IMG/VR virus record: IMGVR_UViG_2061766007_000705
Length of the DNA: 64,000 bases
From: a virus
Lineage: Duplodnaviria > Caudoviricetes
Direction: 5' to 3' (one strand)
Shown: positions 2,933-25,388 of the stretch, one piece after another
Position numbering within the stretch: position 1 is the first letter of the stretch
Layout of the letters: each line of letters begins with the position of its first letter
Position numbers and translations under genes: made by a program
Notes under the pieces: model-generated
Databases searched by the model: none
Seen by the model: the letters and a program-made list of their open reading frames with translations, nothing else
What the model was told of the DNA's origin: nothing

Positions 2933-3028
2933 GTTCAATATGTAGTACTAGATGTTGTATATATATTTTATCACACCACTATATATGGTATGTTTTTTCC
3001 AAAAAATGCATATAAAAATCGAATTTTA
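2933..3028. promoter_or_regulatory. Composite element copy 1: NrdR-box-like palindromes plus TAAAAA-TCGA-ATTTTA inverted repeat
   Basis: Boxes at 2945-2960 and 2976-2991 (31 bp apart), an extra overlapping box at 2933-2948, inverted repeat at 3013-3028. Confidence 0.7.
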
Positions 3029-3035
3029 TTTCAGA

Positions 3036-3332
3036 CTATTTAATTATATACTTCTCTATTATTTCCATCGCTCTTCCTAAGCCAAATTCAAATTTATTAT
3101 CAGGCGATTCATCCTTGTCATCAATTCCTAATATATGATGCTTGTATAAATCAAAATCTTCCTGAACTGCTTTTACCTCTTCTTCAATATCGAAAATAAT
3201 CTCACGAAGTATTCTTGATACAATCTGTGGAGTATTATCATAGTTCATTTTACATACTGCAACAGTATCTAATGATTCATCTATTTCTTTAATTGTATCT
3301 TCGTACAAAAGGGTCAAATTTCCAATCTGCAT
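3036..3332 (-). CDS. Hypothetical protein
   Basis: ORF in tightly packed small-gene array. Confidence 0.6.
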   Translation of the reverse strand: MQIGNLTLLYEDTIKEIDESLDTVAVCKMNYDNTPQIVSRILREIIFDIEEEVKAVQEDFDLYKHHILGIDDKDESPDNKFEFGLGRAMEIIEKYIIK

Positions 3333-3492
3333 TATGGTATTCTAGGTATTCTACTTCATCCAACAGTTCAAGTATAAGGTCATGCTCTTCATAAAGTAAT
3401 TGATTAGTACGATTAAGTTCTAAAGACCTTTTAACTCTATCTAATTTTTCAATCTGTCTTTCACAATGTTTTCGTAAATCTTCTCTCGTCAT
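3289..3492 (-). CDS. Hypothetical protein (likely start MTREDL)
   Basis: RBS AGAAAGGA before ATG at 3492. Confidence 0.65.
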   Translation of the reverse strand: MTREDLRKHCERQIEKLDRVKRSLELNRTNQLLYEEHDLILELLDEVEYLEYHNADWKFDPFVRRYN

Positions 3493-3493
3493 T

Positions 3494-3697
3494 TTATTTT
3501 CCTTTCTGATAGGGATTATCCCAAAAGTCATATTCAATTGTCATCATACGACCATCCCTATTTTCACCTATTACATCAATCCAATATACACCGTCATTAT
3601 CATCGTATTGGTCAAGATTAAAAGATAAATATGGAAAAACAGCTAAAAGTATATCTTTATTAGTTGGATTATCTGGTACATTAATCGTTAATTGCAT
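3494..3697 (-). CDS. Hypothetical protein (P-x-x-x-TN...W-x-N-x-x-Y small domain)
   Basis: RBS GAGGA; resembles the C-terminus of 7188..7712. Confidence 0.65.
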   Translation of the reverse strand: MQLTINVPDNPTNKDILLAVFPYLSFNLDQYDDNDGVYWIDVIGENRDGRMMTIEYDFWDNPYQKGK

Positions 3698-3863
3698 TTT
3701 GATTCCTCTTTTCATTTATATTAGGTAATGTGCTACTATCCCATAATTCTAAATTTTCTTCAAGGGTTTTATTTTCTTTCTCAGACATAATGGAAAATAT
3801 TGACATCGCTTCTCTAAATTCAGAACTTGCTTCACATATTATTTTAAATAATTCTTTATTCAT
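3681..3863 (-). CDS. Hypothetical protein
   Basis: ORF with GGGAG RBS. Confidence 0.55.
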   Translation of the reverse strand: MNKELFKIICEASSEFREAMSIFSIMSEKENKTLEENLELWDSSTLPNINEKRNQNAIND

Positions 3864-3878
3864 TTTAAAATCTCCCTA

Positions 3879-4316
3879 TTAAATATCACCAGGTATATAG
3901 CCTAAATATTCATATTCGTCTAGCCCATAAGTATACACATCTAATCCAATATAATTATATTGTTTTTTAAACTCTGCTTGATTTCTGTTAATAAACTCCC
4001 AATACTGATGTTTTGTAACCAATCCATCGGTACTCAAACTCAATCTATTACCAATAACTTCTGCATAGTTTATTTGTTTTTCTGTTGGTCTTAATTCCTT
4101 TGGAAGTTTCCACTCTATATCATCTTTATCGTAATCACTCTCATCAAAATCTTGACAAGATTCTGATTCTACTGTGCACTTTATCTTACACTCACTACAA
4201 CTATATCGAGTGAGTTTTGCAATATATGATTCTGTCCAAAATCCATCGTCTATTCTCGTTCTATCAACATACTTACTAGACTTTTTCATTTCCTTACTAC
4301 AATTAGGACACTTCAT
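3879..4316 (-). CDS. Hypothetical zinc-ribbon protein
   Basis: CPNC...CSEC; PTEKQINYA motif. Confidence 0.7.
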   Translation of the reverse strand: MKCPNCSKEMKKSSKYVDRTRIDDGFWTESYIAKLTRYSCSECKIKCTVESESCQDFDESDYDKDDIEWKLPKELRPTEKQINYAEVIGNRLSLSTDGLVTKHQYWEFINRNQAEFKKQYNYIGLDVYTYGLDEYEYLGYIPGDI

Positions 4317-4380
4317 TTGTTATCATTCCTTCCTACTATACTTTCATCTTACTATCATCTTTCTCTATTAATCTTGTAAT

Positions 4381-4551
4381 TTAGTCATTATCGTCATCAG
4401 CATATTCCACACTATCAAAAGCATTTTTGCCCCATTCTAGAAGTCTCTCAAACTCTTCTTCTGTGAAACCCCACATATTGCACAGTTCACCAAGACTATC
4501 TCTTCGACATTCTTCGTTGATTGCGTAAACTATTTTTTCGCCTTTAGTCAT
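4381..4551 (-). CDS. Hypothetical protein (likely start MTKGEK)
   Basis: RBS AAGGAG before ATG at 4551. Confidence 0.6.
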   Translation of the reverse strand: MTKGEKIVYAINEECRRDSLGELCNMWGFTEEEFERLLEWGKNAFDSVEYADDDND

Positions 4552-4552
4552 T

Positions 4553-4981: not shown

Positions 4982-5213
4982 TATTATTTTTTACTGTAAG
5001 TGTTGCATCAACTAAATTAACTGCCGTATTTGCATACATCCAATCAGTACAACCAGTATCTAATTTAACAACAAGTATTAATTTATTATCCTCTCTGTCA
5101 AAATCATCTTCGTTTGTTACAACATAAAAAGCATCATTAGTTTCTATAATCTGTCCTGCTTCTGCATTTCCTAATTTACAAGCATACACTTTTCTTTCAT
5201 CCTTTATCTTCAT
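4968..5213 (-). CDS. Hypothetical protein (likely start MKIKDE)
   Basis: RBS GGAAAGGA before ATG at 5213. Confidence 0.65.
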   Translation of the reverse strand: MKIKDERKVYACKLGNAEAGQIIETNDAFYVVTNEDDFDREDNKLILVVKLDTGCTDWMYANTAVNLVDATLTVKNNIAYD

Positions 5214-5302
5214 ACTTTTTTCCTTTCCTATTCTGTTTACAACACTCAGATAAACCACAACCAGTTTTATTTTGAAGTTCTTTGACTTCTTGAATTAATC
5301 TA

Positions 5303-7712: not shown

Positions 7713-7905
7713 CTAAATCAGTGAAAGCCACTGTTTCGAAAAAATTACCAATTATACCACCACTATTAAGTGTATCGTACTTGATTAAAAATCCATCAAC
7801 ATATTCAGCACCCAAATTTTCTTCTACCCATTTAGCACCATTACTTCTTAAATTTGTTTCTTTACACTCTTCTTTACACTTAAAAATACGACTTAAAATC
7901 TGCAT
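7672..7905 (-). CDS. Hypothetical protein
   Basis: GGGGAG RBS. Confidence 0.6.
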   Translation of the reverse strand: MQILSRIFKCKEECKETNLRSNGAKWVEENLGAEYVDGFLIKYDTLNSGGIIGNFFETVAFTDLVERIRKETNNEDN

Positions 7906-9160: not shown

Positions 9161-9661
9161 TTACTCTTCATCTAAATTTTGACAATGTGGATTGTTAGTA
9201 CAAGCAACAAAAGGCTTCTCCATAAGTTCATTATAACAATGTTCTACATAAGAATTACCTTTAAGTATTTCCGAATATGTCGTATAAAGAAAAATTAAAT
9301 TTTGTCTTTCATATTCAGGGAGATTGACATCTTCTGGAATGTAGCGATAATATAAATGTGTAATAGAATTACGCAAAATACTCTTTAAGCACTCTTGCAT
9401 ATCATTAACATTTTTCTCGTACCTTTCATTATTCTTTTCTTGTTCAGACAATTGGTTTTTGAACCTTTCAGAAAGGTCTTGAACCATTTTCTTAACATCC
9501 TCAATCAACTCATTTTGTTCATCGTCTTTTTTTGCTTGCTCATATTTTGTTGTTATATGTTCTATTAGTCTATCCCTCAGTGGTTTGAGCAACAATGTTG
9601 ACAATGTAATTAAAGTAATTATACCACTGCAAATAGTAATGATTAATTTAAATGTTTCCAA
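9161..9661 (-). CDS. Lysis-cassette membrane protein (holin-like; N-terminal TM plus coiled coil)
   Basis: Hydrophobic N-terminus; LRNSI...Y..Y...GN.Y pattern common in Firmicute phage lysis modules. Confidence 0.6.
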   Translation of the reverse strand: METFKLIITICSGIITLITLSTLLLKPLRDRLIEHITTKYEQAKKDDEQNELIEDVKKMVQDLSERFKNQLSEQEKNNERYEKNVNDMQECLKSILRNSITHLYYRYIPEDVNLPEYERQNLIFLYTTYSEILKGNSYVEHCYNELMEKPFVACTNNPHCQNLDEE

Positions 9662-9739
9662 GATATTCCTCGCTTTCTCTGTAAGCCCTTAATCTAATTG
9701 CAAATGAACAAGAAAATCCAACATCTGCAATTAATCAGT

Positions 9740-10138
9740 TTACTTTTTTAATGTGTTAACTTTACTTTCAATTTTCTCCGTAATGTAAGAATCTAAGTCC
9801 TTATAAGCCAAAGCAAGATATTTTCTTGCTTCATCAGTAAGAATAGAATTAACCGCTTCATAAGTCATTCTAAATGCTTCTTTCTGTGCTTCTTCATCGA
9901 ACATATTCTTATCCTTTAATGCACTTACATATGTTTGATTAGTTGCAATTACACAATTACTAATAGTTTCTCCAAGCATATAAATATACGATTGAAGTTT
10001 TTCATCAGTAATATTTTCATTAATCTCAAATGTCTTTTTCTTAACAAGTGCAATAATATAACCCGATACTACTGCCAAAATAGGAACTAAACAAACATTG
10101 CAAATATCTGTTAAAATCTGTAATACGTTACTATTCAT
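9740..10138 (-). CDS. Holin (LL-H-like)
   Basis: One N-terminal TM; V.ATNQTYV..LK...F..E.QKEAF and I..KIES.V motifs; near endolysin. Confidence 0.75.
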   Translation of the reverse strand: MNSNVLQILTDICNVCLVPILAVVSGYIIALVKKKTFEINENITDEKLQSYIYMLGETISNCVIATNQTYVSALKDKNMFDEEAQKEAFRMTYEAVNSILTDEARKYLALAYKDLDSYITEKIESKVNTLKK

Positions 10139-10610
10139 CTTTTTTCCTCGACTTTCTATTTTTTCTAACTGCTTTTGCTACAACTTCTACTTCTGCTTCC
10201 TTTGGTTCTTCAATCTCAGTATCTTCAGAACTATCCGTTGTATCATTGATGTCCATATTATTCTTTACGTTTTCTACAATATCTTCAGAACAATCAGAAC
10301 ACTCATTATCATAAATATCTTCCATTAATTCAGTTTCATCCGTTTCATCAGTTTCTTCTTCAAGAATATCTTTAATATGAGTTGGTATTTCATCTATAAA
10401 ATTTACTTTACCAACTGCACCAAAACTTTCTCTCTTCTCAAAGAGTGCTTTGGCTGAATATGCAAAAAACGTTGCAATAATTGACGTAATTGCAGTAACA
10501 GCTATTGTTTCAGCAATTTGGTCTTTACCCATAAATGCTAATATGAAACTAAGATATACCCAAGAAATAGATACCGATAGAATTACAATAACTGCTTTTT
10601 TTGTAAACAT
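10131..10610 (-). CDS. Two-TM membrane protein with acidic tail (holin/antiholin candidate)
   Basis: Two hydrophobic helices; lies between endolysin and holin. Confidence 0.6.
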   Translation of the reverse strand: MFTKKAVIVILSVSISWVYLSFILAFMGKDQIAETIAVTAITSIIATFFAYSAKALFEKRESFGAVGKVNFIDEIPTHIKDILEEETDETDETELMEDIYDNECSDCSEDIVENVKNNMDINDTTDSSEDTEIEEPKEAEVEVVAKAVRKNRKSRKKDE

Positions 10611-10627
10611 TATTTCACCACTTTTCT

Positions 10628-11353
10628 TTATAATTGGTTAGGATATAGTTCAAGTAATTTATCTAATGTCTGACCACCACATATACCATCTACTTTCAGT
10701 TTATATTTTTGTTGAAATAACTTAACTGCATTTTCTGTGTTTCCACCAAATAAACCATCTTCTTGAAGTTTTATCCCTAAATTACTTTGGTTTAATAACT
10801 CTTGTAACTTTTTAACCTCTAACACATATCCATCACTCTTTTCATCATTTTCAATACTAAGCGGATGCATTATTGTTTGAGATTTATAATTTGTAATAAA
10901 TTCTAATGGGTTTATTACTTCCCAATTCTTCTTATCTTTACTTATGTGAATTTCATAATGCAAATGAACACCTGCTGATTTTCCAGTGTTTCCCAATGTT
11001 GCAATTACTTTTCCAGCAAGACAAGAATCCCCTTTCTGTACTTTAATAGAACCATTAGCCAAATGTTGTGCTAAAAATCTAATGTAATACCCTTTAACCT
11101 TTCTATAAAATTGTAAAATTACAACATTACCTCTTGCATTATTCCAATATATATCTTCAACAATACATCTAAAAGGGGCATAGAGATTGCCTGAAGAAGC
11201 AATATCTATGCCATTATGAAATGTTCTTTTATGTGTTATAGGATGTATTCTATAACCATAATATGAAGATATGCGAATTGTGTCGCAAGGAAGATGTTGA
11301 CAAATAGAAGGTATTTTGTATGTCTTTTTTGTGTTCGTACTCATAATTATCAC
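10628..11353 (-). CDS. Endolysin: M23 peptidase plus peptidoglycan-binding domain
   Basis: HNGID and HLHYE zinc motifs; VKKLQ...DGLFG..T..AVK.FQ....LKVDGICG. Confidence 0.92.
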   Translation of the reverse strand: MIIMSTNTKKTYKIPSICQHLPCDTIRISSYYGYRIHPITHKRTFHNGIDIASSGNLYAPFRCIVEDIYWNNARGNVVILQFYRKVKGYYIRFLAQHLANGSIKVQKGDSCLAGKVIATLGNTGKSAGVHLHYEIHISKDKKNWEVINPLEFITNYKSQTIMHPLSIENDEKSDGYVLEVKKLQELLNQSNLGIKLQEDGLFGGNTENAVKLFQQKYKLKVDGICGGQTLDKLLELYPNQL

Positions 11354-11363
11354 CTTGCTTGTT

Positions 11364-14300: not shown

Positions 14301-17300
14301 ATAATCATTATATGCTCCATTTCTTGGCTCATTACTTAAACCTAAATCAATGGAATGTTGTTGAGACCAAGCATCACCCAATGCAACATATTGAAAATCA
14401 ACGCATAATTTATCATAATACGTTAAATCAACTGGTTGGTCTGTGCAGTATCCGCTACTACCATATAATGAAGTAGAATCATCTACTAATCTCATATATC
14501 TACTTTCTTTTGTTCCACCAAATCCAACTGTTCCAAAATATGTAGAGTAGAATTTATTATTCCAACCACCTACAATTTCCGCACATTCGTCACCTTGATT
14601 ATAAACCATAACTGGTTCTGCTTCTATTGTAACTGTTGATATATCAGATAACGTAACAATAGATAAATTGTCCATTAAATTAGTGTATCTTGTTGTGGTT
14701 AATTCACAATAATAATATAAAACAGTACCATTCATTTCACCTAAAGGAATTTCAAATGTAGAATTTGTTGCTCCTTCAATTAAACGTGAATGTGTTTTTT
14801 CCAAATCATCAGTTTCATACCATTGATAAGTTACATCGTGATTATTATCTGTTGTAGTAGTTATATTAATAACGTCAGATGTTTTATAATTACAAGGTAA
14901 TGTAATACTTTGTGGTTGTTTTACAATTGTTGCAGGTGTTGGAGCAGTATCATCATGTTTAACTCTAACTGTTGCTACATCTGTAATATAAGAAGCAGTT
15001 TTACCATTATTATCTCTCATTGCGCTAATTTCACAATAATAATAATTTGTACTACAACCTTCAAGACCATTTGATATATTATACGTAGAACTATTCGTAC
15101 CAACCTTGATAGGAGATTGTTTGTCAATTGTATTGCATTTATACCATTGATATTTAAGAGTGTGACCTGCTAAATCTACTGTAGGGGTTACAGATAATAT
15201 TTGATTATTATAACCATAATCTAATTCAAGAACATTTGTTATGCTATGTATAGGTTGTACCGCTGGGTCATCTGTGGCATCTTCAAGTTCTATATTACCA
15301 CTTGTTTTACCATTTTCATCTATCATTGTATAAATGAAAACATTGGAAAGGTAACCACCACCATCAAAAGATAAATCAAATAATTCATTTTTATCTTGGT
15401 CTGTAAGGTCAATTTCAATATAATAAGTATGATTTGTATTAGAAGTTTTAATATTTTGTTCATCTATATCATAATTAATTTTTAATTGTTCATTATCATC
15501 GTTTTGATAGTCAAATAAAACAATATATTTTTCTTTACCCTTTAATACATTTAATAACTTAATATTATCATTAATGCCAACCTTATTTCCTTTATAATCA
15601 TCGTCAATAAATATTGTGGTGTCAGTACTTTGTGTACTTGCCCATTTGTCAAATAAAATATGCCTTTTATAAGCAAATGTTTTAATATTTTCAACTCTAT
15701 GGTCATTATAATAATCAATTAAACTATATAAAGCATCCAATGTGTTGTTTACATTTTTAAGAATATCATCATATGTAATAATATAAAATGGTGAATTTAA
15801 CATATTAAATGATAAATTTTGTGTGAAATATTCTTTCCACCATTTATATTTATCAGATTCACATACAATAAAAAATGCAATATTTGGATTATCTGTTTGA
15901 TTAGTCTCAATGATTAAAGAAACTATTTCGTTACAATCATCATCAGATGAGCATATACAAAAACAACAATCTGAAGATAATACATCATTACGATTGTATG
16001 TAAAATTATTTTTTTTAGATACACATTTGGATGACCATCCAGTACCATCCCCACCATAATAAATACTTATAGCATTATTAATTTCATTATAAAATTTAAC
16101 AACTTTACTATCTGTTTCGTTTTTATAATATAATAAATAATTTATTGTGTAATCAGGTAAAACGGCAATACTAGTAAATGTTCCATCACATCCACCTGTT
16201 CCACTACAACGTTTTGAATAAGTTCTTTGTAAAGTAAACAAGAAATTATCTTTAAATTTTTCACCACCAAGGGGACTGCGGAAAGTTGATTCTTCCCAAC
16301 CATCAACACTAATATAAGAACTCCATTCATTTTTCTTACGTACTACATCAAATTTAACATAACCATTTATTGGTAATTGTTTTAATATATATGTCATTAT
16401 TTCTTCAGCACGTGATTGCGAAGGGAGTATTGGTACATCTTTCAAAGATTCATAAGTAGTAGGAATATCACTAATGCCAATAAATGTATGAATATTTACA
16501 AGGTCTTCTCTGCCTTCTTCGTAAAGACATTGGATACCATTTTTTTCATCTTGATTACCAACGATAATAAAAATATCGGGATGATTTTTATTGCATTTTT
16601 CCCAATATTTTGCTTCTTCCCAAATTTCATTTAAAGCGCAATCAAAATTACCATAATATCCAATATTATAAGTTTCAACACCATTAAATGACTTTAATCC
16701 ATAAAGACCATCTACAATTTCATTAATGGCATTAATATCTTCAATATCATTACTAATAGATAAAACACCAATTTTAATCGGAGTTTCCCAATAGTCTTCC
16801 AACATTTCTTCACATTCTGATTTAGTCATAAATGTTTCAGACAAACGTTCTTCTCTCATATCTTCATTAATGAAATAAATTTTTTGAATTTGACAAGAAT
16901 TATTAGCCATAATTCTAATGTAGAATTCATCAACAATATCATTAATGTCAACATAAGTATATCCTAATGTCGTTGTGACATTTGTAAGTGTTTTATCAAA
17001 CTTATTGACTTTACCTTTATTCTTATCTCTTAATTTAGTATCTAAACCAATAGTAATTGAACCTGTATGTTCTACACATAATTTGGTATAATTATTTAAA
17101 TTAACCTTAACTTGTGTAGAAAAACCACTGCCATTATTTAATTCAAGATACTTTTCTTTTTTATTACCACTAAACGAGGTAGATGAATAACAACCATCAC
17201 CCCAAGTACCAGTAATATGAGGATTTTCATCACCATAATTATAAAGATAAAGCATTTCTTGATTTGGAGTAGGAGTAACAAACCCCCTCAGTAATTGAGG

Positions 17301-17732
17301 GGGCGTATTTTGATTTTGTCTATTTGTACTAAATAAATATACTTCTAAATTACCTATAAATGATGCTTTATCTTGAACTTCGGATTCTTTAAAAATATAA
17401 GAGGAACGGAATTTTCTTCTTTCTTTTAATAATGGTTGATATTGGTCATATACACTATCTGCACAAATAATAAATACTGATACGCTATTACCCATAATAT
17501 TATATATGTTATCAAGATATTGATTTATTTTATTATAGTCTTGCTCAGAAGCACAACCTAAGAAAAAACCTTTTGCATCGTGACGAGCCTTAGAAATTAC
17601 ATTATCTTCATATCGAAGATATTGAATTCCTTTTTTGTCAAAATAATCTTCAATTAATATTGATAATTGATTAGCGCAACTTAAATCACTTAATTTTAAT
17701 AAGTTCAAAAAAACTAATTTGGAAGAATCCAT
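11364..17732 (-). CDS. Giant multidomain protein (2122 aa): at least 5 Ig-like domains, repeated beta domains and alpha/beta domains including one KamE-like domain; putative virion adhesin
   Basis: Five YQWY-containing Ig-type repeats (four with YYYC); YNxGD...W repeats; lies between tail and lysis genes. Confidence 0.7.
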   Translation of the reverse strand: MDSSKLVFLNLLKLSDLSCANQLSILIEDYFDKKGIQYLRYEDNVISKARHDAKGFFLGCASEQDYNKINQYLDNIYNIMGNSVSVFIICADSVYDQYQPLLKERRKFRSSYIFKESEVQDKASFIGNLEVYLFSTNRQNQNTPPQLLRGFVTPTPNQEMLYLYNYGDENPHITGTWGDGCYSSTSFSGNKKEKYLELNNGSGFSTQVKVNLNNYTKLCVEHTGSITIGLDTKLRDKNKGKVNKFDKTLTNVTTTLGYTYVDINDIVDEFYIRIMANNSCQIQKIYFINEDMREERLSETFMTKSECEEMLEDYWETPIKIGVLSISNDIEDINAINEIVDGLYGLKSFNGVETYNIGYYGNFDCALNEIWEEAKYWEKCNKNHPDIFIIVGNQDEKNGIQCLYEEGREDLVNIHTFIGISDIPTTYESLKDVPILPSQSRAEEIMTYILKQLPINGYVKFDVVRKKNEWSSYISVDGWEESTFRSPLGGEKFKDNFLFTLQRTYSKRCSGTGGCDGTFTSIAVLPDYTINYLLYYKNETDSKVVKFYNEINNAISIYYGGDGTGWSSKCVSKKNNFTYNRNDVLSSDCCFCICSSDDDCNEIVSLIIETNQTDNPNIAFFIVCESDKYKWWKEYFTQNLSFNMLNSPFYIITYDDILKNVNNTLDALYSLIDYYNDHRVENIKTFAYKRHILFDKWASTQSTDTTIFIDDDYKGNKVGINDNIKLLNVLKGKEKYIVLFDYQNDDNEQLKINYDIDEQNIKTSNTNHTYYIEIDLTDQDKNELFDLSFDGGGYLSNVFIYTMIDENGKTSGNIELEDATDDPAVQPIHSITNVLELDYGYNNQILSVTPTVDLAGHTLKYQWYKCNTIDKQSPIKVGTNSSTYNISNGLEGCSTNYYYCEISAMRDNNGKTASYITDVATVRVKHDDTAPTPATIVKQPQSITLPCNYKTSDVINITTTTDNNHDVTYQWYETDDLEKTHSRLIEGATNSTFEIPLGEMNGTVLYYYCELTTTRYTNLMDNLSIVTLSDISTVTIEAEPVMVYNQGDECAEIVGGWNNKFYSTYFGTVGFGGTKESRYMRLVDDSTSLYGSSGYCTDQPVDLTYYDKLCVDFQYVALGDAWSQQHSIDLGLSNEPRNGAYNDYVRFDYTGNCTGDFANYTDLKLHTKKMDISSVTGSYYLNFGASSFYYPEQTADIRIHRVYLIPQSLSKKNMIPATPPTIVTQPQNITVDYGYESVSISIEATVEDNHTLSYQWYKCDDLSGYNAQKIDDAIESIYNIPIGKLGETIEYYYCSVTALRTESRLTETLNSNIISFSVNADETSATTPKVTLTLLTDNSLKAEVEPIENHTFTYQWYENPYKNKYSTKHLIIINGATEQIYKPIFNDVINKERYYYCQVTSHLNTNIVNKKTAINSLQITKHKALRPNYYNIGQIKWNKSYSNNQWSGQGNSTIVKNDNLIHCMCGYTTKSPIDVTNYDEVYLNYIVSNLIGENSKIYIGLDTFIKSDQYGTNNEPAFDIQTNTSITNEGKGSIILNVENITGEYYVRFMVDNQVEGETITFTPNGFYARKKNCCVILSDEQTVIKKSLSYGYNETEGQIIQSLDYLSDKPLTYQWYEGSTAIQGANSLTFNVPLDLENTQKQYRFVASYNNQAAFVQDYQVDIGANINLTLSGVEPIGLVHGGVYDNNYQTYNNLPKNKIKNTICFNNKLKHGDEATININWFRCLYSDKNNSEIIKSTDDEGLYIYNNGDNTLFIMDEISGDSIEELAINEKGHLSNDNYEYDIIFNENNICIDVYTNIDACTSVFNDCVYCRCTYDGSLGYFECEDLCANNVYVCKPAEYISEAKSLKFGEKYLVIFEAQSINDDVQNVAIGNSEYAEKLYTGLIAHKSFVEVTKERKVYCVLLDLSDLTIIEDARQNTATRQPKGVCIADESNANISRTDFKVYTIWQSDKVKYLYDFWDSGNTYGYTYKDLRAYENSNVYEYRGDPLILKVGNGGSWMYERFNLLDCSFKKSEEQWCLSAQKIKVVYCIRFNTSKTTFWNVCYQMSGDEYTYTDALTQGDTRLGEILTLPYVLSDKQTDRQYIDIFTFGQKQRQGNMYIYPRIGEAFIYRIYLIKED

Positions 17733-17743
17733 TCAAACACCCC

Positions 17744-20700
17744 CTATTCTGTTATCATTCCGTTGTTCATAGCATTAATTTCATTATAGGTATATTTTAC
17801 TTTATCAATCTTAGATAAATCAGTTGCAATTCTGTGAACAATGTAAGTTATAATATGCTCCGCAAATACACTGGAAGGAAATGCAGTATCAAGACCTATA
17901 TCTTTGCCAAATTCATTTGCAGTATCTAACGTATTATATGTTTTAGAATCAACAATACCAATTTGTAATTGATTATTATAAAAACCATACTGTTTTGCCA
18001 AGTCTAACATTTCTTGGAACTTGTATTTATCAACAGTTTCTCCTACATATATAATAGCATCTGTTGTTTTAAGTTTGTCATCTTTTATAAAAGACCTTAA
18101 GTCTGCTTCATTTTGAATAACACCAAAATTATTTACTGTAACATTTGAAAAATTAGAAAACTCTTGTACAAGAGAATCAAGACAATTTTCATTTTGGTCA
18201 TCCAAAGAGACAAAAGAAACATTAAGTTTCTTTTTAATGTTCTTATTGATGTAAATATCAGCATCTGATGATGTATATACGGTTTCATCTGGTGGTGTAA
18301 CAAAATGTCTATATTTATTTTTAGGTATTTCAAAATAAATTGTATGTATATTTAATTTAAGTATTGCTGTACCATAAGTAGGAGAATTACTTTGAGCAAC
18401 AATTTTAATACTATATTCTCCAGTTAATTCCCTAACATCTAAATCTAAAGATGTTTCATTAGGAGATACGGATATTGATTTATTTGAATCTACCAATTCA
18501 ACTTTTAATGAACCACCATATGGCGCACTGCCCTCAAATTCAAATTTTAAAAACATCAAATCAGTTACATCTATTTTATTCTTAGATATTGATGTAATAT
18601 TACACATAACCAATGAACCAGTAGCATTATAATTTATTGAAAAAATACTATCATTATCCCAACCACCAATTATATCATTATATTGTGTATCTTCTTTACG
18701 TAAATAAATTTTTTCCATTGGTTGATGTATTTCTTCATATTCTTTTAATTTGTTTTCTATATTTTCTTGTCTTTGTTGATGTCTTTGCTCTCTCTTTTGT
18801 TCTTCTTGCTCATTATCATAATGAGGTTCTTCAAATATAGGTGGAATACCATATTCTTCTTCATATTCATCGACCTCTAAATCATCAATTGCAAGTTGAT
18901 AAATATCATCATCTTGAATAACATCTTCTTCTTTAGCAATTAAATATATCTTATATATTTTAATTGCAACATTACCATAATTTGTTGATGAACTTAATTT
19001 AATATAATATTCTCCAATTACATTGTCAATGTCAAGAATAATTGTTTCTTTTGGATTATTAGAATTTTTATATTCTTTTGATATAATATATTCTGTATCA
19101 TATTGAATATCATTACTTATATCAGACGACAATCCTACATTTAATGACCAATTATAATAACTATTTCCATTACCTGTTTTTTCATATTCAATATATATTT
19201 TAGAATATTTAGTAAAATCAAATTTATTTTTAGAACTTAAAGCGCATTGCATATCAGTATATTGATTGGTCGTTGTATTTAAAGAGATATACGATAATTG
19301 TGTAGTTGCAGTTGCATTATTCCCATACAAACTAATATATCCACCAGTCCTATCCCAATATTCATTACCTTTATTATAAAGATATATTTTATTAGGAACT
19401 GGAGCATCTGGTTCATATAATTCTGGTAATGGTTCTTGTGTTGGAGTATACTCATAACTCAAATCTTCGTCATATTCATCCAAATAAATATTAAGTATTT
19501 TTAAATTATAGGTTTCCTCATAATATTTATTTCCCATTACAAAGTTTACATAATATTTACCTTTGACATTGGTAATATCTAATTCTTTTTTATATGTTGT
19601 ATTTAATGATAAGTCTGAATAACTCACAATAGGATTGATTTCAGAAGCACCAAATATACTATTAGTATTTGCTGGTATATCTTTATTACCATCAATATAA
19701 ATACTTCCAAAATACTCAGAATTTAAAGTAGTATGCAACCCAATTAAAAAATCAGTGTATCCATAATTATTAATAGTTGGTTGTCTAGTAGGTAATACTT
19801 CAAATTGATATTCAATACAAAATTTTTTATAATTAGAAATGTCAATTCTTTTATCGGTAGACAGTCCACCACAACGCCTTTCGTTGTTAGAAAGTAATTG
19901 TATATAATTTGGTTGTCTTACAATATTTGGTGGATAGTGTCTATCAGATGAAACATATCCACCTGTAATATAACAGTCTCGATAATGTATTTCATTCCAA
20001 CCATTTGTAATATCCGTACATTCATTACCTTCATTATACAAATAAATCCTATTATCATTAGGATATTTCTGTTTTTCTGTTTTCAATATACAATTCAATA
20101 TATAATTTGCATCTTTACTATCAGTAAATCCAAAATCATATCCAAACTTTTGCGCTATATTATTAGCAACTTCACTATTACAATATTTAGAAGATAAAAG
20201 AAGAATGTTTTTAGTATTGTTTAAATTATTTTGCTTAATTTCATCAACTATATTTTCACAATGCTTTTGTATATTACGTTTTGTCAAACTACCATCTGCA
20301 AATAAAAGAATGTCTATATTATTAAATTCATTATTTTGAATTAAATTATTTAATCTTTCGCTATCTACATAGTCAAAATTATAAAAATTAATATTCTGAT
20401 ATGTTTGTAATTCTTTCATTAAAGAATATGTGTTTGCGGTGATTTCATCTAAGCAACACAAACCTATATTTAATGAATTGTTAAAATATTTACCAATATA
20501 TTCTTCACATTCATTTTTATTACACGTTTGTTCTAATATTTCGTTTTCTTGCAAGTCAATTTTTGTTTTAGAGTTTTTATTATCAATTAAATAAACATTA
20601 TGAATTTGAACATCACAACCACCATATCTAAACCAACTTCGTACACTAAAATAAACATAATATTCACCTTTAAATGTTTTAATATTTAACTTTTTAATAT

Positions 20701-21586
20701 TATGACCATTTTTTTGATAATCTTCATTATCATCAAGATTTAAATTTGCTTTATCTACTTCAAATAGTCTGAGACTACTAATAGATAAATTATATCCACC
20801 ACTTCTTAATGTATCGGTGATACTTATGTCAAATGTTGAATTGTTTAAGGTATTTGTAGTATATTCAATACACAATTCTGTATAATTTGTTAAATCAATT
20901 TTATTCAATGTTGTAAATCCACTCGCAAAATCACAATTGTCAGTAGATTCACAAATAACAGATAAATAATTTTTATTTATTTTAGTACCATTATACCCAT
21001 TACGATATGTCAAATAATTTGAAGTCCACCCACCCGTAGTATCAAAACACATATCTCCTTTAGTATATAATGGAAGTATATCTTTCGGCTCATTGTTTGG
21101 GTTATAAGTATCTAAAAAACTTATATTAAAACCTTTACCACATATATGTTTTTCAAATTTAATATAATTAACAGTATATTTTGCCGAATCATATGTGAAT
21201 CCAATATAATATTTACCTTGTATATTGGATGTATCTACAGTTTTTGTATAACCCCTTTTTATTGTAGAACTACGATAATAAGAAAAAATTGTTTTAACAA
21301 AATTCTTATTTTCATCATATAATCTTATTTCATAAGTATATCTATAAGTATCAATATCAGTAAACGATGTTTGAATTTGTGTAATTTGATTACTTCCAAA
21401 GGAAGAGAAATTAATCATTTCAGTTGACATATATAAATTAGAAGAAACTGTCCATTGCATAGTATCAGTATGTATATTTGTCGGATAAATTTGAACGGTT
21501 TCTATACGTGGTGTATTTTTTATTTTTTCTTCTTCTTCATGAATTATATCATACTTTGTTTTTCTCTTTTTGTTTTTATCAAACAT
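17744..21586 (-). CDS. Large repeat protein (1280 aa): 4-5 repeated beta domains plus two KamE-like alpha/beta domains; putative virion accessory protein
   Basis: IYLYNxGxE...GGW...KID.T.Y...G.YY...I..IYL repeats shared with the neighbouring gene. Confidence 0.7.
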   Translation of the reverse strand: MFDKNKKRKTKYDIIHEEEEKIKNTPRIETVQIYPTNIHTDTMQWTVSSNLYMSTEMINFSSFGSNQITQIQTSFTDIDTYRYTYEIRLYDENKNFVKTIFSYYRSSTIKRGYTKTVDTSNIQGKYYIGFTYDSAKYTVNYIKFEKHICGKGFNISFLDTYNPNNEPKDILPLYTKGDMCFDTTGGWTSNYLTYRNGYNGTKINKNYLSVICESTDNCDFASGFTTLNKIDLTNYTELCIEYTTNTLNNSTFDISITDTLRSGGYNLSISSLRLFEVDKANLNLDDNEDYQKNGHNIKKLNIKTFKGEYYVYFSVRSWFRYGGCDVQIHNVYLIDNKNSKTKIDLQENEILEQTCNKNECEEYIGKYFNNSLNIGLCCLDEITANTYSLMKELQTYQNINFYNFDYVDSERLNNLIQNNEFNNIDILLFADGSLTKRNIQKHCENIVDEIKQNNLNNTKNILLLSSKYCNSEVANNIAQKFGYDFGFTDSKDANYILNCILKTEKQKYPNDNRIYLYNEGNECTDITNGWNEIHYRDCYITGGYVSSDRHYPPNIVRQPNYIQLLSNNERRCGGLSTDKRIDISNYKKFCIEYQFEVLPTRQPTINNYGYTDFLIGLHTTLNSEYFGSIYIDGNKDIPANTNSIFGASEINPIVSYSDLSLNTTYKKELDITNVKGKYYVNFVMGNKYYEETYNLKILNIYLDEYDEDLSYEYTPTQEPLPELYEPDAPVPNKIYLYNKGNEYWDRTGGYISLYGNNATATTQLSYISLNTTTNQYTDMQCALSSKNKFDFTKYSKIYIEYEKTGNGNSYYNWSLNVGLSSDISNDIQYDTEYIISKEYKNSNNPKETIILDIDNVIGEYYIKLSSSTNYGNVAIKIYKIYLIAKEEDVIQDDDIYQLAIDDLEVDEYEEEYGIPPIFEEPHYDNEQEEQKREQRHQQRQENIENKLKEYEEIHQPMEKIYLRKEDTQYNDIIGGWDNDSIFSINYNATGSLVMCNITSISKNKIDVTDLMFLKFEFEGSAPYGGSLKVELVDSNKSISVSPNETSLDLDVRELTGEYSIKIVAQSNSPTYGTAILKLNIHTIYFEIPKNKYRHFVTPPDETVYTSSDADIYINKNIKKKLNVSFVSLDDQNENCLDSLVQEFSNFSNVTVNNFGVIQNEADLRSFIKDDKLKTTDAIIYVGETVDKYKFQEMLDLAKQYGFYNNQLQIGIVDSKTYNTLDTANEFGKDIGLDTAFPSSVFAEHIITYIVHRIATDLSKIDKVKYTYNEINAMNNGMITE

Positions 21587-21620
21587 TTATTTCCCACCCT
21601 TTCCTTTCCCTTATTCTAAA

Positions 21621-21755
21621 TTAATTCGTAGGCTTATATTCGCCATTATCAAGTGCTTCTTGAACTTGTTCTTTATATTCCTCTGGAACATCATCTATAG
21701 TAATTCTTTTCATGCGAATCTGCATTACATAAAATTTAATACTTTTAATACCCAT
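21621..21755 (-). CDS. 44-aa CD1375/XkdX-like small tail-associated protein (not in ORF track)
   Basis: MGIKSIKFYVMQIRMKRITIDDVPEEYKEQVQEALD...; TIDDVP motif; GGGGG RBS. Confidence 0.7.
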   Translation of the reverse strand: MGIKSIKFYVMQIRMKRITIDDVPEEYKEQVQEALDNGEYKPTN

Positions 21756-21770
21756 AATTCAATCCCCCTT

Positions 21771-22067
21771 TTATCCCATCATCATTTCAAGTAAAACATC
21801 CTCAATTGCACTAATTCTTTCATCAATTGTATACTGAGGTTCATTATATGTTTCTGTCCATTCTTGAATAATTTTATTTCTTTTTTCTTTCCACGTAAAA
21901 CTATAAGAACAATGTTCCTTTGGTTCAGGTGGAGTTGTTTCTTCTACGGGTTTATATCCATTCTTTTTAAGAATTTCAACCGTAGGTGGAACATACCAAG
22001 TACCTTCATCTTTTAGCATAGAAGGAGCATATTCCAAATTTCCATCTATAAGTTTACCATATCTCAT
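21771..22067 (-). CDS. XkdW-like tail-fibre accessory protein (likely start MRYGKL)
   Basis: AGAAAGGA RBS; C-terminal ERISAIEDVLLEM; precedes the XkdX-like gene. Confidence 0.6.
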   Translation of the reverse strand: MRYGKLIDGNLEYAPSMLKDEGTWYVPPTVEILKKNGYKPVEETTPPEPKEHCSYSFTWKEKRNKIIQEWTETYNEPQYTIDERISAIEDVLLEMMMG

Positions 22068-22091
22068 TATCTTGTATCCTTTCTTGACAAC

Positions 22092-22177
22092 ACACCATAT
22101 ATAGTATATACACATAAAATGTACTACTATATATGGTGTATATATACCAAATTTTTGCATATAAAATGTAAATTTTA
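22092..22177. promoter_or_regulatory. Composite element copy 2: NrdR-box-like pair plus TAAAAT-GTAA-ATTTTA
   Basis: Boxes at 22092-22107 and 22124-22139 (32 bp apart); inverted repeat at 22162-22177. Confidence 0.75.
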
Positions 22178-22244
22178 AATTAAAATATATTCAATTGTCT
22201 ATTTAATTGTATATTAAATTGTCAAACCATTAAATCAATTCAAA

Positions 22245-23438
22245 TTATTCTTCTTCAACAATAGTTTCTGTACAAGTACCCAAAATATAATCACCATAAT
22301 ATGAAAATACTATTTCATAATATCTATTAGTGATAAATTCAATACTTTCATTAGACCAAACAATAGGTGTTCCATTAGAAGCACTAAATGTAAAGTTTGT
22401 ATTAGCACATTTAAATGAAATAAACCATTCATTAAAATCATTTTCATTTAAATAGTTACAACTAAGGATAATTGAACTTGATTTATCTGCGAAGTTAAAA
22501 ATTTTATAACAATAATTAGAATCAAGTCTAAAAATATTGTCATTCTCCACACCATCAACATTAACATATTCAGCACGAAGTGTATTAACCTTTGCTTCAA
22601 GTTCATTCATTTTTGAAATTAATTGTACCGCACTTGAATTATTAACTTTAGATTCAAGTTCGCTAACTTTTGTGCTTACTTCTGAAATATTCATATTATT
22701 TACTTTATTTTCAATTTGTGTAACTTTGTTAGACATTACACCAATATTAACTTCACCAACGTTGTTTTGAAGTTGTTCAATCTGTTGATTGATTGTATTT
22801 ACACCCAAATTACCAATTTTATTATCAATTTTATTTTCAAGTTCTAAAATTTGATTTGGAATAGTGGTTTTCTCTAACTCAGTTACTTTTGTTTGAATAA
22901 CATTAACATCAAGATTACTCATTTCTTCAATTTTTGCATTAATACCATTAATATCAAGGGCATCAATTTTATTTTCGATTTGAGTTAAATCTAAATTTTT
23001 AATCCTTTGAAATTCTTCTGCAATTCTATCTGCATCTACATTATCTAATGTTTCTTGAAATTCTTCAAGTTTTTGTCCTATTGTTGTATTATTATCTTCA
23101 AATTCTTGTCTAAGAACTTTAATTTGATTTTCTGGTCTTTGTCTTTCTGCTTCTTGACGAGCAATTTCCATCTGTTCAATATAAGGTTGCTTTTCTTCGT
23201 CAGTAACCTCAACCACCTCGCCGTTGATGTACTTGTATAGTGGCAAGCACATACTGTCAATGAGTAGTGGGTTTTCATCAGAAAGTTCACCGTTGATAAT
23301 CAATCTGAATTGCTGACCGCCTTGCTCATTGATACAAATATCATTTTCGTTTGGCTTTTCATACGCATCCGAAAAACCGTGGATAATAATACCGTTATCG
23401 TCTGTTCGGATATAGTGTTTATTATAAATAAGTTCCAT
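22245..23438 (-). CDS. Tail-fibre-associated protein (chaperone-like N-terminus, long coiled coil, beta C-terminus)
   Basis: KHYI...GFSDA...DICINE.GG.QFRL N-terminal motif; heptad repeats; directly downstream of the fibre gene. Confidence 0.6.
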   Translation of the reverse strand: MELIYNKHYIRTDDNGIIIHGFSDAYEKPNENDICINEQGGQQFRLIINGELSDENPLLIDSMCLPLYKYINGEVVEVTDEEKQPYIEQMEIARQEAERQRPENQIKVLRQEFEDNNTTIGQKLEEFQETLDNVDADRIAEEFQRIKNLDLTQIENKIDALDINGINAKIEEMSNLDVNVIQTKVTELEKTTIPNQILELENKIDNKIGNLGVNTINQQIEQLQNNVGEVNIGVMSNKVTQIENKVNNMNISEVSTKVSELESKVNNSSAVQLISKMNELEAKVNTLRAEYVNVDGVENDNIFRLDSNYCYKIFNFADKSSSIILSCNYLNENDFNEWFISFKCANTNFTFSASNGTPIVWSNESIEFITNRYYEIVFSYYGDYILGTCTETIVEEE

Positions 23439-23448
23439 TTTGTGCCTC

Positions 23449-25206
23449 CTACCACGAATTATCGAGCATTAAAATACCGTGTGGTGAACCGCTGTCAAGC
23501 ATACCATCACCACCATATCTTTGATTAACAATAATCATATTTGCGCTTCCACTATTCCCTTCAACATAAGCATATTTACCGTCTAAATCTGCAAACGGTA
23601 TCGTTGTGGCTGAACCACTATGCGAGTTTCGCCAAAAACCCCAAATTTTCACCATGCTGTTTACTCTAATAGGTAGCGGTAAAAAGAAAGTTATGGAGGT
23701 ATCTGTGCTATTGTATTCATGTATCGTTGCAATATTGTGTCCCCAACCGTGCGATTCATATACTACGCGGAAAGGCAAACACTTCAATAATTCGGTATCT
23801 TTGTTCATCCTTATCCCGCTCTTTATATCTTTGTAAAGGGTGGATTTTTCGCCAAACTCAAACTTTGCTGCTGATATTTCTATTTCATTTACTGATTGGT
23901 TAATTACTTCAAGTCTGAATAGATAATCTCTATCGTTTGTATTTTCAAGCATCACTATGTGTACACGAAAATCATCTGTCCTTATAGCCTCTACCCATTG
24001 AGCCGAATTAGTGCGAGCGGGAATAGTTACTGTTCCGCTATAAATAGTATCGTATATTTTCACAGATACCGTCGCCTTTTCCCCGATATGAGTGTCTAAA
24101 ATATGTCGTGGTTGCATCTGTGCTATGGTAGGATTTACCGAAACTCTTGATAATAGAATACCAAGAGTATCACCAAGAAATCTTACTGTACCGTAATTGT
24201 GCCAAAAGTCAAATCCGACACCATTCTCGCCATACCCCACCTTATAGTCTGCGCTCCACGGGATGCAATACAAAGTGTTATTGATTTGTACATAGCCAAA
24301 ATTAGCGGTTTGGTAAAAGCCATTCAGCGGTTCTGTGGTAGTGCCTAATGGTGTTGTAAGGGATGTATCTGATGCCGCATAATATGTTGTACCCGTTGGA
24401 ATAATGTAAGCAGGCAACTGCCTTATGTGAAAATAAGGATTAACAAGGAGATTTTCGTTGTAGGACTGTTTGTCTACATAAGTTTTTATACCACCACTTT
24501 CTACAAATTTTGTAGAATTTTCTGTAGGTTCTGTATCTGGATTAGTACCCTTTTGGATAACTGGATTATTTAAGGTAACTACTTTATTACTTGCACTTGG
24601 TTGTGCATCAAATACAAGTGCATCTTGCTTATTATTCCATGTAGTTTTTTCTGTATCGGTTACAGTTCTGTGAGTAGAATCTTCTTCAAGGTCTGTAATA
24701 CTATCTCCATTTTTAACCAACTTTGTACCGCCACTACTATCATCATTACAACCTACATAAACATCACCTTTCAAATGTTTATTACCATTCCAATCAGTTG
24801 CTTCAATATTCTTTCTATTGTCATCGGCAGTACCATTACCAATAATATCAGCATATACACTACTACTATCTTCAACATTATATCTACCTTGTACGTGTTG
24901 ATTTGGAGATGATGCTATATTATCAGTACCACCAGCTACAAAAGAATTAGTACCTATCGCACTACCAGTTTTTCTATTAATAGAAAAAGAACCACTTCCA
25001 ACTGGATTAGATTTATCCATTTTATTATTTTCAACAGTAGTCAATCTATTTCCAAGAGTTGTATTTACATTTCCGATTGATGTATTTAAACTAGAAAGTG
25101 CGTTATTAGTTTCACTAAAATTACCATTGATTTTATTAGCAAACTGTTGTCCACTATCACCACCGTAAGGTGGGTCACCTGCTATAATTTGTTCATAATT
25201 AGGCAT
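23449..25206 (-). CDS. Tail fibre / receptor-binding protein
   Basis: N-terminal GDS...FANKINGNF.E anchor; QHVQGRYN...IIGNG repeat; VTDTEKTTWNNKQ; NENLLVNPYF-type distal domain. Confidence 0.75.
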   Translation of the reverse strand: MPNYEQIIAGDPPYGGDSGQQFANKINGNFSETNNALSSLNTSIGNVNTTLGNRLTTVENNKMDKSNPVGSGSFSINRKTGSAIGTNSFVAGGTDNIASSPNQHVQGRYNVEDSSSVYADIIGNGTADDNRKNIEATDWNGNKHLKGDVYVGCNDDSSGGTKLVKNGDSITDLEEDSTHRTVTDTEKTTWNNKQDALVFDAQPSASNKVVTLNNPVIQKGTNPDTEPTENSTKFVESGGIKTYVDKQSYNENLLVNPYFHIRQLPAYIIPTGTTYYAASDTSLTTPLGTTTEPLNGFYQTANFGYVQINNTLYCIPWSADYKVGYGENGVGFDFWHNYGTVRFLGDTLGILLSRVSVNPTIAQMQPRHILDTHIGEKATVSVKIYDTIYSGTVTIPARTNSAQWVEAIRTDDFRVHIVMLENTNDRDYLFRLEVINQSVNEIEISAAKFEFGEKSTLYKDIKSGIRMNKDTELLKCLPFRVVYESHGWGHNIATIHEYNSTDTSITFFLPLPIRVNSMVKIWGFWRNSHSGSATTIPFADLDGKYAYVEGNSGSANMIIVNQRYGGDGMLDSGSPHGILMLDNSW

Positions 25207-25241
25207 AAGTGTTTCCCCTTTCTTTTAAATTTATATATATA

Positions 25242-25388
25242 AAACTACATATAGTATATTTATAATATATGTCCAATATATAGTAGATTGATGAAATTTT
25301 ACTATACTATATATTGTATCTTTTATTTTTAAATATACTATATATGGTATATTTTTTGTTAAAAAAGTAGAATAAAATCCTCATTTTA
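25242..25388. promoter_or_regulatory. Composite element copy 3: four NrdR-box-like palindromes plus TAAAAT-CCTC-ATTTTA
   Basis: Boxes start at 25242, 25271, 25304 and 25335; inverted repeat at 25373-25388. Confidence 0.75.

Follow-up and report, generated by a model that had tools for sequence, protein, structure and literature searches.

What is the role of three short intergenic modules in the genome of a cattle-rumen phage, in which boxes resembling the operators of the repressor NrdR lie at a fixed distance from a small inverted repeat? A preliminary description proposed that recombination takes place at them, NrdR serving as an architectural accessory factor, and kept joint transcription control by NrdR and a second protein as the alternative. 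The stretch analysed here (the window, 64,000 nucleotides) leaves out about 14 kb of the phage genome.

Three modules at operon borders

The modules, S1, S2 and S3, mark operon borders in the window (Table 1), while its main structural operon has no module upstream. Since the minus strand carries every gene of the window, each module begins with the inverted repeat on its upstream, promoter-distal side, and its boxes point towards the gene that follows. In gene direction, the order is a stop codon, the dyad, 24–25 bp of phased A/T tracts and 2–4 boxes. The sequence reads as first described, with three co-oriented copies and boxes at the reported positions.

Table 1. Parts of modules S1–S3 and their neighbouring genes in the window
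Feature	Position	Strand	Remarks
S1 dyad TAAAAT-TCGA-TTTTTA	3013..3028	-	7 nt past stop codon of gene 3036..3332
S1 NrdR-type box 1	2976..2991	-	core CCATATATAG 2979-2988
S1 extended -10-like TGTGaTAAAAT	2965..2975	-	candidate read from the sequence, in box 1/box 2 linker
S1 box 2	2945..2960	-	core CAACATCTAG 2948-2957; 31 bp from box 1
S1 box 3	2933..2948	-	core CTACATATTG 2936-2945; 43-bp spacing to box 1, as in the long-spacer class; overlaps box 2
Strong sigma-70-type promoter TTGACT-17-TATAAT	2828..2856	-	separate, downstream of S1
S1 downstream genes	441..2773	-	YorF-like phrog_2367 (1565..2773), Sak4-like AAA_24 ATPase (441..1550)
S2 dyad TAAAAT-TTAC-ATTTTA	22162..22177	-	
S2 box 1	22124..22139	-	core 22127-22136
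S2 box 2	22092..22107	-	core 22095-22104; 32 bp from box 1; box end 24 nt before ATG 22067
S2 downstream operon	9161..22067	-	98, 44, 1280 and 2122 aa proteins; M23/PG-binding endolysin 10628..11353; small lysis-region genes
S3 dyad TAAAAT-GAGG-ATTTTA	25373..25388	-	2 nt past stop codon of gene 25391..25693
S3 four-box phased array	25242..25350	-	cores 25338-25347, 25307-25316, 25274-25283, 25245-25254; spacings 31, 33, 29 bp
S3 downstream genes	22245..25206	-	585-aa fibre-like protein (a lead only), 397-aa partner

The motif TAAAAW-N4-ATTTTA is found at the three dyads and once more at 7894 (0.75 copies expected); this last copy overlaps a start codon and is unrelated. In the modules, the dyad is fuller, (A/T)TAAAAT-N4-ATTTTAT, an AT-rich element of 18 bp with arms of 6–7 bp around a 4-bp centre. 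Its centres (TCGA, GTAA and CCTC) and its distance of 21–22 bp from the 16-bp box are those reported previously, the latter corresponding to 23, 24 and 24 bp when counted from the 12-mer ACCATATATAGT. As RNA, the dyad folds no better than shuffled sequence.

Sigma-70/SigA promoters have their -35 and -10 hexamers 16–18 bp apart; no convincing -35 element was found in the modules. In the window, a TTGnnA-like hexamer precedes core 1 by 8–9 bp; in most IMG/VR families, the distance is 7–8 bp. The -10 candidates are weak in S2 and S3 (S3 has TTAACA-16-TAGTAT), and the predicted transcription start of the S1 -10-like element falls on box 2. A second, strong promoter, which NrdR at S1 would not block, follows about 120 bp downstream of S1. 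This second promoter resembles a promoter at 63700-64000.

The genes that follow the modules are YorF/Sak4-like (S1), giant proteins with an endolysin (S2) and fibre-like (S3), so none of the modules is the promoter of a ribonucleotide reductase (RNR) operon, and the window has no RNR gene. The YorF-like and Sak4-like genes open an SPbeta-like replication module, whose next genes (YorH, DnaB and PolIII alpha) lie beyond the window.

The boxes and bacterial NrdR operators

Exact copies of ACCATATATAGT are present at 2978-2989(-), 22094-22105(+), 22126-22137(-) and 25337-25348(-), with a one-mismatch copy at 25306(-). Allowing at most one mismatch, 7 matches were observed against 0.82 expected, a number reached in 0 of 100 shuffles. 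Pairs of boxes 30–33 bp apart number four in the window, all inside S1–S3, compared to a mean of 0.04 in 200 simulated sequences.

Published criteria for NrdR sites are a conserved C4, A6, A8, T9, T11 and G13, an A/T content of 63% or more between C4 and G13, and a linker of 15–16 bp between boxes (14–17 tolerated) or, as a second optimum, 24–27 bp (PMC13584703, PMC12051234). All nine module cores, of the form C.A.AT.T.G, have these six bases, and 6–8 of the 8 positions between C4 and G13 are A/T in each of them. Core-to-core spacings are 31, 32, 33, 31 and 29 bp, and 43 bp for 2936/2979. Those of 31–33 bp correspond to linkers of 15–17 bp, within the NrdR range; the 29-bp spacing gives a linker of 13, outside the optimum, and the 43-bp spacing a linker of 27, which belongs to the long-spacer class.

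A pair pattern built from the phage boxes, CCATATATAG-N21-23-CHATATATDG, was run against bacterial sequences. It matches at least 120 bacterial loci from many phyla, GC-rich genomes included, and a crude tblastn places an RNR-related gene within 1 kb of at least 37 of these 120. All ten flanking ORFs sampled encode Nrd proteins (NrdJ, NrdD, NrdA/E, NrdI, NrdR, NrdB and NrdG), which argues that the phage pairs are genuine NrdR-type operators. The flanks of the phage boxes also match those of real Bacillota nrd promoters (ATACCATATATAGTG...). Taken by sequence, spacing and this comparative test with bacterial nrd loci, the identification of the box pairs as NrdR operators, already suggested in the preliminary description, is strongly supported. 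NrdR is found in 77% of bacterial genomes, and DNA binding across species has been demonstrated for the E. coli and Streptomyces proteins (PMC13584703).

Like bacterial RNR promoters, the modules have partly palindromic 16-bp boxes, linkers of 15–16 bp with one long-spacer class, a four-box array, the same flanks as Bacillota nrd promoters and a box 2 near the start codon. In Listeria monocytogenes, nrdAB has two box pairs and the nrdDG ATG lies 13 bp after box 2 (PMC12051234); the geometry of S2 resembles this nrdDG arrangement and that of a further pair-carrying locus, L276. Unlike bacterial RNR promoters, the phage sites precede replication/recombination, fibre-like and lysis operons, and upstream they adjoin a conserved dyad that was not seen at the bacterial nrd promoters sampled.

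The composite in other phages

Among the 93 distinct IMG/VR sites listed, the gap from dyad to core is 13–15 bp at 46, and every other gap length accounts for 0–4 sites. A second core follows 30–33 bp further on in 42 of these 46 sites. The gap in the window, 24–25 bp, is one helical turn longer, and one other locus (L344) has a 25-bp gap as well. The distribution of gaps has a sharp peak.

Over the 46 composites listed, the dyad consensus is ATAAAAt-N4-ATTTTATT, and 32 have a downstream ORF with a ribosome-binding-site-like motif, most often about 9 nt from box 2. The products of the genes that follow include GH25 endolysins at four loci and AAA_24/Sak4-like ATPases at three, besides radical SAM and GIY-YIG proteins, in phages whose gene content is otherwise unrelated. 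NrdR pairs without the dyad precede YorF-like and Sak4-like genes in three further lineages, with 27–50% identity to the gene after S1. No RNR gene was found near 110 viral loci with such pairs.

Neither the box pair nor the composite is present in the closest annotated relatives, TR-TP1 and the syntenic MT835481, which indicates that the cassette is dispensable for this type of phage. The genes after S2 and S3 also have no counterparts in relatives.

A probable promoter/operator cassette and the competing explanations

The presence of the same composite ahead of replication, lysis and fibre genes in dozens of phages points to transcription control rather than to a recombination site. We consider it probable that the modules serve the phage as compact promoter/operator cassettes, under the control of host NrdR and of a putative dyad-binding factor. 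This is close to the alternative offered in the preliminary description. Points against it are the missing -35 element, the weak -10 candidates of S2 and S3, the strong promoter that NrdR at S1 would leave free and the absence of the cassette from TR-TP1 and MT835481. No NrdR Zn-ribbon is encoded in five pair-carrying viral records (two of them complete), so the reader of the boxes is probably a host protein; that the host of this phage has NrdR is our assumption.

We infer NrdR binding, repression, timing and a role of the dyad at the modules as follows. The layout would be a dyad, a phased A/T-tract spacer, box 1, a 15–16 bp linker and box 2, with two extra boxes in S3; the linker holds a -10-like hexamer in most copies, and box 2 would cover the predicted transcription start. 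A host NrdR tetramer loaded with dATP and ATP would bind the box pair and shut the promoter. Phage DNA synthesis would then drain dATP, NrdR would leave the DNA, and the downstream operon would be expressed: replication/recombination for S1, giant-protein and lysis genes for S2, fibre-like genes for S3. The dyad may be a second upstream element of fixed orientation, either the site of a dimeric factor or an UP-element-like contact, acting from the same DNA face at about 27 or 37–38 bp from the centre of box 1. In pneumococcus, the NrdR regulon of the host becomes strongly derepressed during lytic infection by phage SpSL1 (PMC6755750).

Two known systems resemble this architecture in part. At the E. 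coli nrdDG promoter, activation comes from upstream FNR dyads and repression from NrdR boxes. Both there and in the phages, an upstream dyad with arms of 5–6 bp around a 4-bp centre has NrdR boxes downstream, and the position of the phage dyad varies by whole helical turns, as do class I/II activator sites. The phage ATAAAAT-N4-ATTTTAT differs from the FNR box (TTGAT-N4-ATCAA) and may be a mere UP-like A/T element. The PeSL cassettes of T4-type phages combine an early promoter with a real RNA stem-loop. They too are short composite regulatory cassettes, repeated at the borders of gene modules and common to several phages, but the phage dyad lacks an RNA fold beyond that of shuffled sequence and its cassette has operators for a host repressor.

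The recombination reading makes the inverted repeat the core site of the recombinase encoded at 38262..39362. The tail module does contain a Phage_integrase-family gene, the sites flank a gene pair as direct repeats, and in L276 a distant recombinase homologue follows 1.1 kb downstream of the NrdR pair, although this pair lacks a dyad and stands at the head of an operon. The core of a tyrosine recombinase consists of inverted arms of about 9–13 bp around an overlap of 6–8 bp, which must be identical between partner sites. Xer cer cores have arms of about 11 bp around a 6–8 bp centre identical between partners, and cer/psi, with ArgR/PepA, likewise places a protein-binding array at a fixed distance beside a small dyad. 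In contrast, the phage arms, with the consensus ATAAAAT, span just 6–7 bp, their centre is 4 bp long, and translation starts lie right beside the site. The centres differ between the copies of the window and across the 46 sites listed, near-identical contigs sharing theirs. Moreover, MT835481 encodes an orthologous recombinase (32% identical, same position in the tail module) without any box pair, and in many unrelated phages the composite directly precedes the ribosome-binding sites of ordinary genes. No assembled contig is joined at 22170 or 25380. Short arms, differing centres, a site-less relative with the recombinase and a location before ordinary genes leave this reading unsupported, and we regard it as highly improbable. 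Equally improbable is that the YonO-like single-subunit RNA polymerase of the phage (59266..61941) uses the modules as its promoters. The phage encodes such a PF05183/YonO-type enzyme, and no promoter sequence is established for YonO (PMC5467207), yet TR-TP1 (polymerase 40% identical) and MT835481 lack such modules. A PF05183 gene is found in only one of five composite-carrying viral records and not in the complete 125-kb record, and the main structural operon, as noted, has no module upstream.

Other explanations are less improbable, though still unlikely. The 8–9 boxes per genome, multiplied by phage replication, might titrate a scarce host repressor, derepress the RNR genes of the host (and of any phage) and raise dNTP supply, local control being secondary; such a sponge could operate alongside the promoter/operator cassette. 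The number of boxes is unusually high, with three modules including a four-box array compared to one or two pairs per genome in five other phages. S1 also lies too far away to repress the strong promoter downstream, and the derepression seen with SpSL1 would fit. However, a sponge requires no fixed orientation, no phased dyad and no position before ribosome-binding sites, all three of which are conserved, and most phages have only one or two pairs. With about the same low probability, a phage protein would be the reader of the boxes, of the dyad or of both; it could be a homologue of NrdR, or else an unrelated protein (a repressor or a late activator) mimicking NrdR specificity. nrdR homologues have been reported in gut phages (PMC10294663), and the 14 kb outside the window could encode an NrdR-like protein. 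The dyad was not seen adjoining the bacterial nrd promoters sampled and is present in just 2 of 401 bacterial genomes searched, a scarcity that suggests a phage-specific partner. Against a phage-encoded reader, neither an ATP-cone nor an NrdR Zn-ribbon was detected in the window proteins scanned or in the five viral records, and the phages carrying the composite are otherwise unrelated in gene content. Slightly less probable still, the composite could be a mobile regulatory cassette or module-boundary element that moves between phages and, through short homology, lets its flanking genes be exchanged. Such an element would be conceptually akin to the PeSL cassettes and could also coexist with the promoter/operator function. 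The fibre gene pair lies between S2 and S3, the genes after them lack counterparts in relatives, unrelated genes in unrelated phages are preceded by the same cassette, and modules coincide with operon borders. Nevertheless, copies share just about 12–16 bp of identity, a related RNA-library contig diverges at the gene boundary 23438 and not at a module, and no deletion or junction forms were seen among assembled contigs.

Returning to the promoter/operator cassette, a broader proposal can be advanced tentatively. A widespread cassette (at least 46 distinct sites) may tie phage replication, lysis and host-recognition genes to the dATP/ATP status of the host, through borrowed NrdR and a putative dyad factor that acts on the same face of the DNA, with either one helical turn or two separating it from box 1 on the upstream side. 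If so, NrdR, so far regarded as specific for RNR genes, would also serve non-RNR genes of phages.

NrdR-type boxes in the three modules

The window carries three modules (S1, S2 and S3), exactly as the preliminary description had reported them and far beyond chance. Along the coding strand, the preceding gene ends at its stop codon and is followed by an AT-rich inverted repeat (the dyad, TAAAAT-N4-ATTTTA), then after 24–25 bp by the first core (C.A.AT.T.G) of two to four boxes, and then by the next gene. The gaps holding S1–S3 lack the ordinary GC-rich terminators that other intergenic gaps of the window carry, and no further intergenic dyad was found in the window.

An NrdR site is made up of a pair of 16-bp boxes with C4, A6, A8, T9, T11 and G13 conserved and an A/T content of at least 63% between C4 and G13; the linker is 15–16 bp long, although lengths of 14–17 bp are also tolerated and 24–27 bp forms a second optimum (PMC13584703, PMC12051234). 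All nine module cores conform to this base pattern. Pairs of cores 30–33 bp apart occur four times in the 64 kb, all inside S1–S3, against 0.04 expected. As an independent test, the phage-derived pair pattern was scanned over one genome per prokaryote species. This returned at least 120 bacterial loci from many phyla, including GC-rich ones (this count and those from IMG/VR are lower bounds, with families unevenly sampled). The flanking-ORF representatives of every larger cluster were Nrd proteins (10/10: NrdJ, NrdD, NrdA/E, NrdI, NrdR, NrdB and NrdG). Box flanks (ATACCATATATAGTG...) are also alike in real Bacillota nrd promoters and in the window phage. On sequence, spacing and comparative grounds, the window boxes qualify as NrdR-type operators, and this part of the preliminary description is strongly supported.

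In Petrocella sp. FN5 (loci L143 and L166, two copies 4 kb apart) and a rumen Lachnospiraceae (L155), NrdR-type pairs lie inside a ~150-bp repeated element flanked by inverted GGTCAAAA...TTTTGACC arms, a bacterial composite with NrdR boxes that differs from the phage one.

All three copies keep the dyad arms, whereas no position is shared among the 4-bp centres; this pattern suggests to us that the dyad binds a protein and is not just a trace of common descent. A/T tracts in the spacer between dyad and boxes are about one helical turn apart. Two other roles for the dyad were rejected. Its RNA folding is no better than that of shuffled sequence (z +0.8 to +0.9), against a hairpin or terminator, and a reading as a -10 hexamer served by a separate -35 is inconsistent among copies. 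The SPbeta region upstream of yonK holds no similar element.

Pairs and composites in other phages

The pair pattern was found in at least 110 IMG/VR contigs, and the DNA examined around the match encodes an RNR homologue in none of those listed. Five viral records hold one or two pairs each (reversed-pattern control, 0), and none of the five, two of which are complete, encodes an NrdR Zn-ribbon. As after S1, pairs precede YorF-like (phrog_2367) and Sak4-like genes in three more lineages (27–50% identity to the window protein); the YorF homologues of Clostridium phage c-st and Thomasclavelia phage TR-TP1 are without any box pair. At locus L257, a TTGACT -35 and the -10 flank box 2, and in a complete 180-kb phage (L276) a pair stands ~27 nt before the first ATG of a tail operon.

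We then searched IMG/VR for the dyad with one core after it at any gap of 8–38 bp. Among the matches listed, the gap was 13–15 bp in 46 of 93 distinct sites, 42 of which had a second core 30–33 bp further on, and each other gap length accounted for 0–4 sites; one site, L344, combined the 25-bp gap of the window with a pair. Centre to centre, the dyad is ~27 bp from box 1 elsewhere and 37–38 bp in the window, a difference of one helical turn. The consensus of the 46 composites (dyad plus pair) extends the dyad to ATAAAAt-N4-ATTTTATT. In every composite examined the boxes lie between the dyad and the downstream gene, and in other phages box 2 is most commonly ~9 nt from an RBS-like motif. Products of the genes downstream of composites include GH25 endolysins, AAA_24/Sak4-like ATPases, a radical-SAM protein and a GIY-YIG endonuclease, besides proteins without assignment. 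A metagenome scan for the exact composite of the window (gap 20–27 bp, exact 12-mer) gave six matches, all unrelated, and a class-level genome search matched 2 of 401 genomes, one within a coding region.

An initial loose pattern scan of IMG/VR returned mostly noise and brought up an unrelated repeat family. This highly conserved repeat of ~100 bp (L059, L076, L057 and L027; record ~13% complete at 74 kb), with the perfect palindrome ACCATATATGGT, recurs at intervals of a few kb in a very large virus, in either orientation and between convergent as well as divergent genes; the proteins of this virus are unrelated to those of the window. At 10240-10390 of L061, near the end of the stretch examined in a 25.6-kb viral contig, an iteron-like array of ACTACATAT(A/T/G)GT repeats could be a replication origin.

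Gene content and relatives of the window phage

The window has a GC content of ~30% and all its genes are on the (-) strand. Several gene features mark it as an SPbeta-like siphophage: the RNA polymerase, the capsid, portal and tape-measure block, the endolysin, the recombinase within the tail module and the replication module (see table). The same phage is present in 68.4- and 67.8-kb contigs of one bovine rumen study, whose copies have an identical S3, and exact-protein look-ups gave the same phage only. Its nearest annotated relatives are the Thomasclavelia phages TR-TP1 and TR-TP2 (polymerase 40% identical; annotated 'RNA-dependent RNA polymerase' in TR-TP1) and human-gut contig MT835481. 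No close relative was found by megablast or by scans seeded with the 585-aa, 402-aa (tail) and 402-aa (YorF-like) proteins, the sole match of these scans being a distant locus without boxes (L088). The 585-, 397- and 402-aa proteins had no match in a PDB sequence search.

Features of the window
Feature	Position	Strand	Remark
S1	2933-3028	(-)	precedes YorF-like and Sak4-like genes
S2	22092-22177	(-)	precedes giant proteins and lysis genes
S3	25242-25388	(-)	precedes 585-aa fibre-like protein gene
Direct repeat GACAATT(T/G)AATATA	22180-22235	(-)	two copies, 25 bp apart, between stop codon of gene 22245..23438 and S2 dyad
YonO-type single-subunit/two-barrel RNA polymerase	59266..61941	(-)	PF05183, E 3e-21
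Capsid, portal, tape-measure block		(-)	SPbeta-like siphophage marker
M23/PG-binding endolysin		(-)	SPbeta-like siphophage marker
Tyrosine recombinase	38262..39362	(-)	within tail module
Replication module	runs past window start		YorH, DnaB, PD-(D/E)XK nuclease, PolIII alpha
IscB-type gene (RRXRR + HNH)	56970..58247	(-)	within 56970-58618
HEARO RNA	58279-58512	(-)	Rfam RF02033, 113.9 bits; precedes IscB-type gene
TnpB N-terminus	1-342	(-)	HTH_OrfB_IS605 domain
Sigma-70-type promoter	2822-2900	(-)	strong
Sigma-70-type promoter	63700-63790	(-)	strong

The position of the recombinase in the tail module is kept in MT835481 (35984-37427), beside a RecU-like resolvase homologous to window gene 63133..63699. 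By sequence, the IscB-type gene and the HEARO RNA form an OMEGA/IscB element with its guide RNA, between the RNA polymerase block and the structural genes. In the source contig, the gene call adjoining the TnpB N-terminus encodes a protein of 399 aa, OrfB_IS605/Cas12f-like, and stands between the Sak4-like and YorH-like replication genes. The two sigma-70-type promoters have a common extended upstream motif, TTTTTAGAAA...TTTTGC(T/A)AAA...AAAGTTACTTGA; they are probably phage early promoters, perhaps with a shared operator. The 585-aa gene (23438-24460 region) is partly covered by metatranscriptome contigs of three rumen studies, some 100% identical, although such RNA-library contigs carry no information on starts, strand or level. 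One contig of 2.3 kb follows the window over 23438-23677 and departs from it precisely at the gene boundary, suggesting a mosaic relative.

The recombination reading, and a proposed promoter function and switch

The modules had been read as recombination sites with NrdR as accessory factor for the tyrosine recombinase of the phage. This reading is at odds with the dyad, whose arms are 6–7 bp and whose 4-bp centres differ among copies. Moreover, MT835481, whose orthologous recombinase (32% identical) occupies the same position beside the RecU-like gene, is without any box pair, as is TR-TP1. Contigs of four runs contained no joint at a dyad centre over 18000-30000, which is weak evidence; the joints listed there have 20–21-nt sides and are probably spurious. 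That the modules serve as promoters for the YonO-like RNA polymerase is highly improbable, since relatives with the polymerase have no modules and the polymerase is absent from four of five composite-carrying records, including the complete one.

We propose a compact promoter with operators as the simplest model. The S1 linker holds an extended -10-like TGTGaTAAAAT; with this element, box 1 would fall within the promoter spacer and the predicted start site under box 2, the usual NrdR arrangement. At the same place, several IMG/VR families have TATAAT or TATAAG, and the -10 candidates of S2 and S3 are weaker than that of S1. The dyad may be the site of a dimeric factor or an UP-like A/T element, both compatible with its location upstream of the -35 region and with the whole-turn shift; its conservation points to a putative partner factor.

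During lytic infection with a pneumococcal phage, the NrdR regulon of the host becomes strongly derepressed (PMC6755750). For this reason, we propose that the composite would hold the operons after it silent as long as dATP is abundant, and that phage DNA synthesis, by draining dATP, would release them.

The literature presents NrdR as a repressor dedicated to ribonucleotide reductase genes. Within an incomplete coverage of the literature, we found no paper on phage-borne NrdR sites other than those of nrd genes. If phage operons for replication, lysis and fibres stand behind NrdR operators, the host dNTP sensor would be a timing or safety switch of phage development. These genes would be off at plentiful dATP, in the lysogen or before replication, and on once phage DNA synthesis drains it, and the NrdR regulon would extend to mobile elements.
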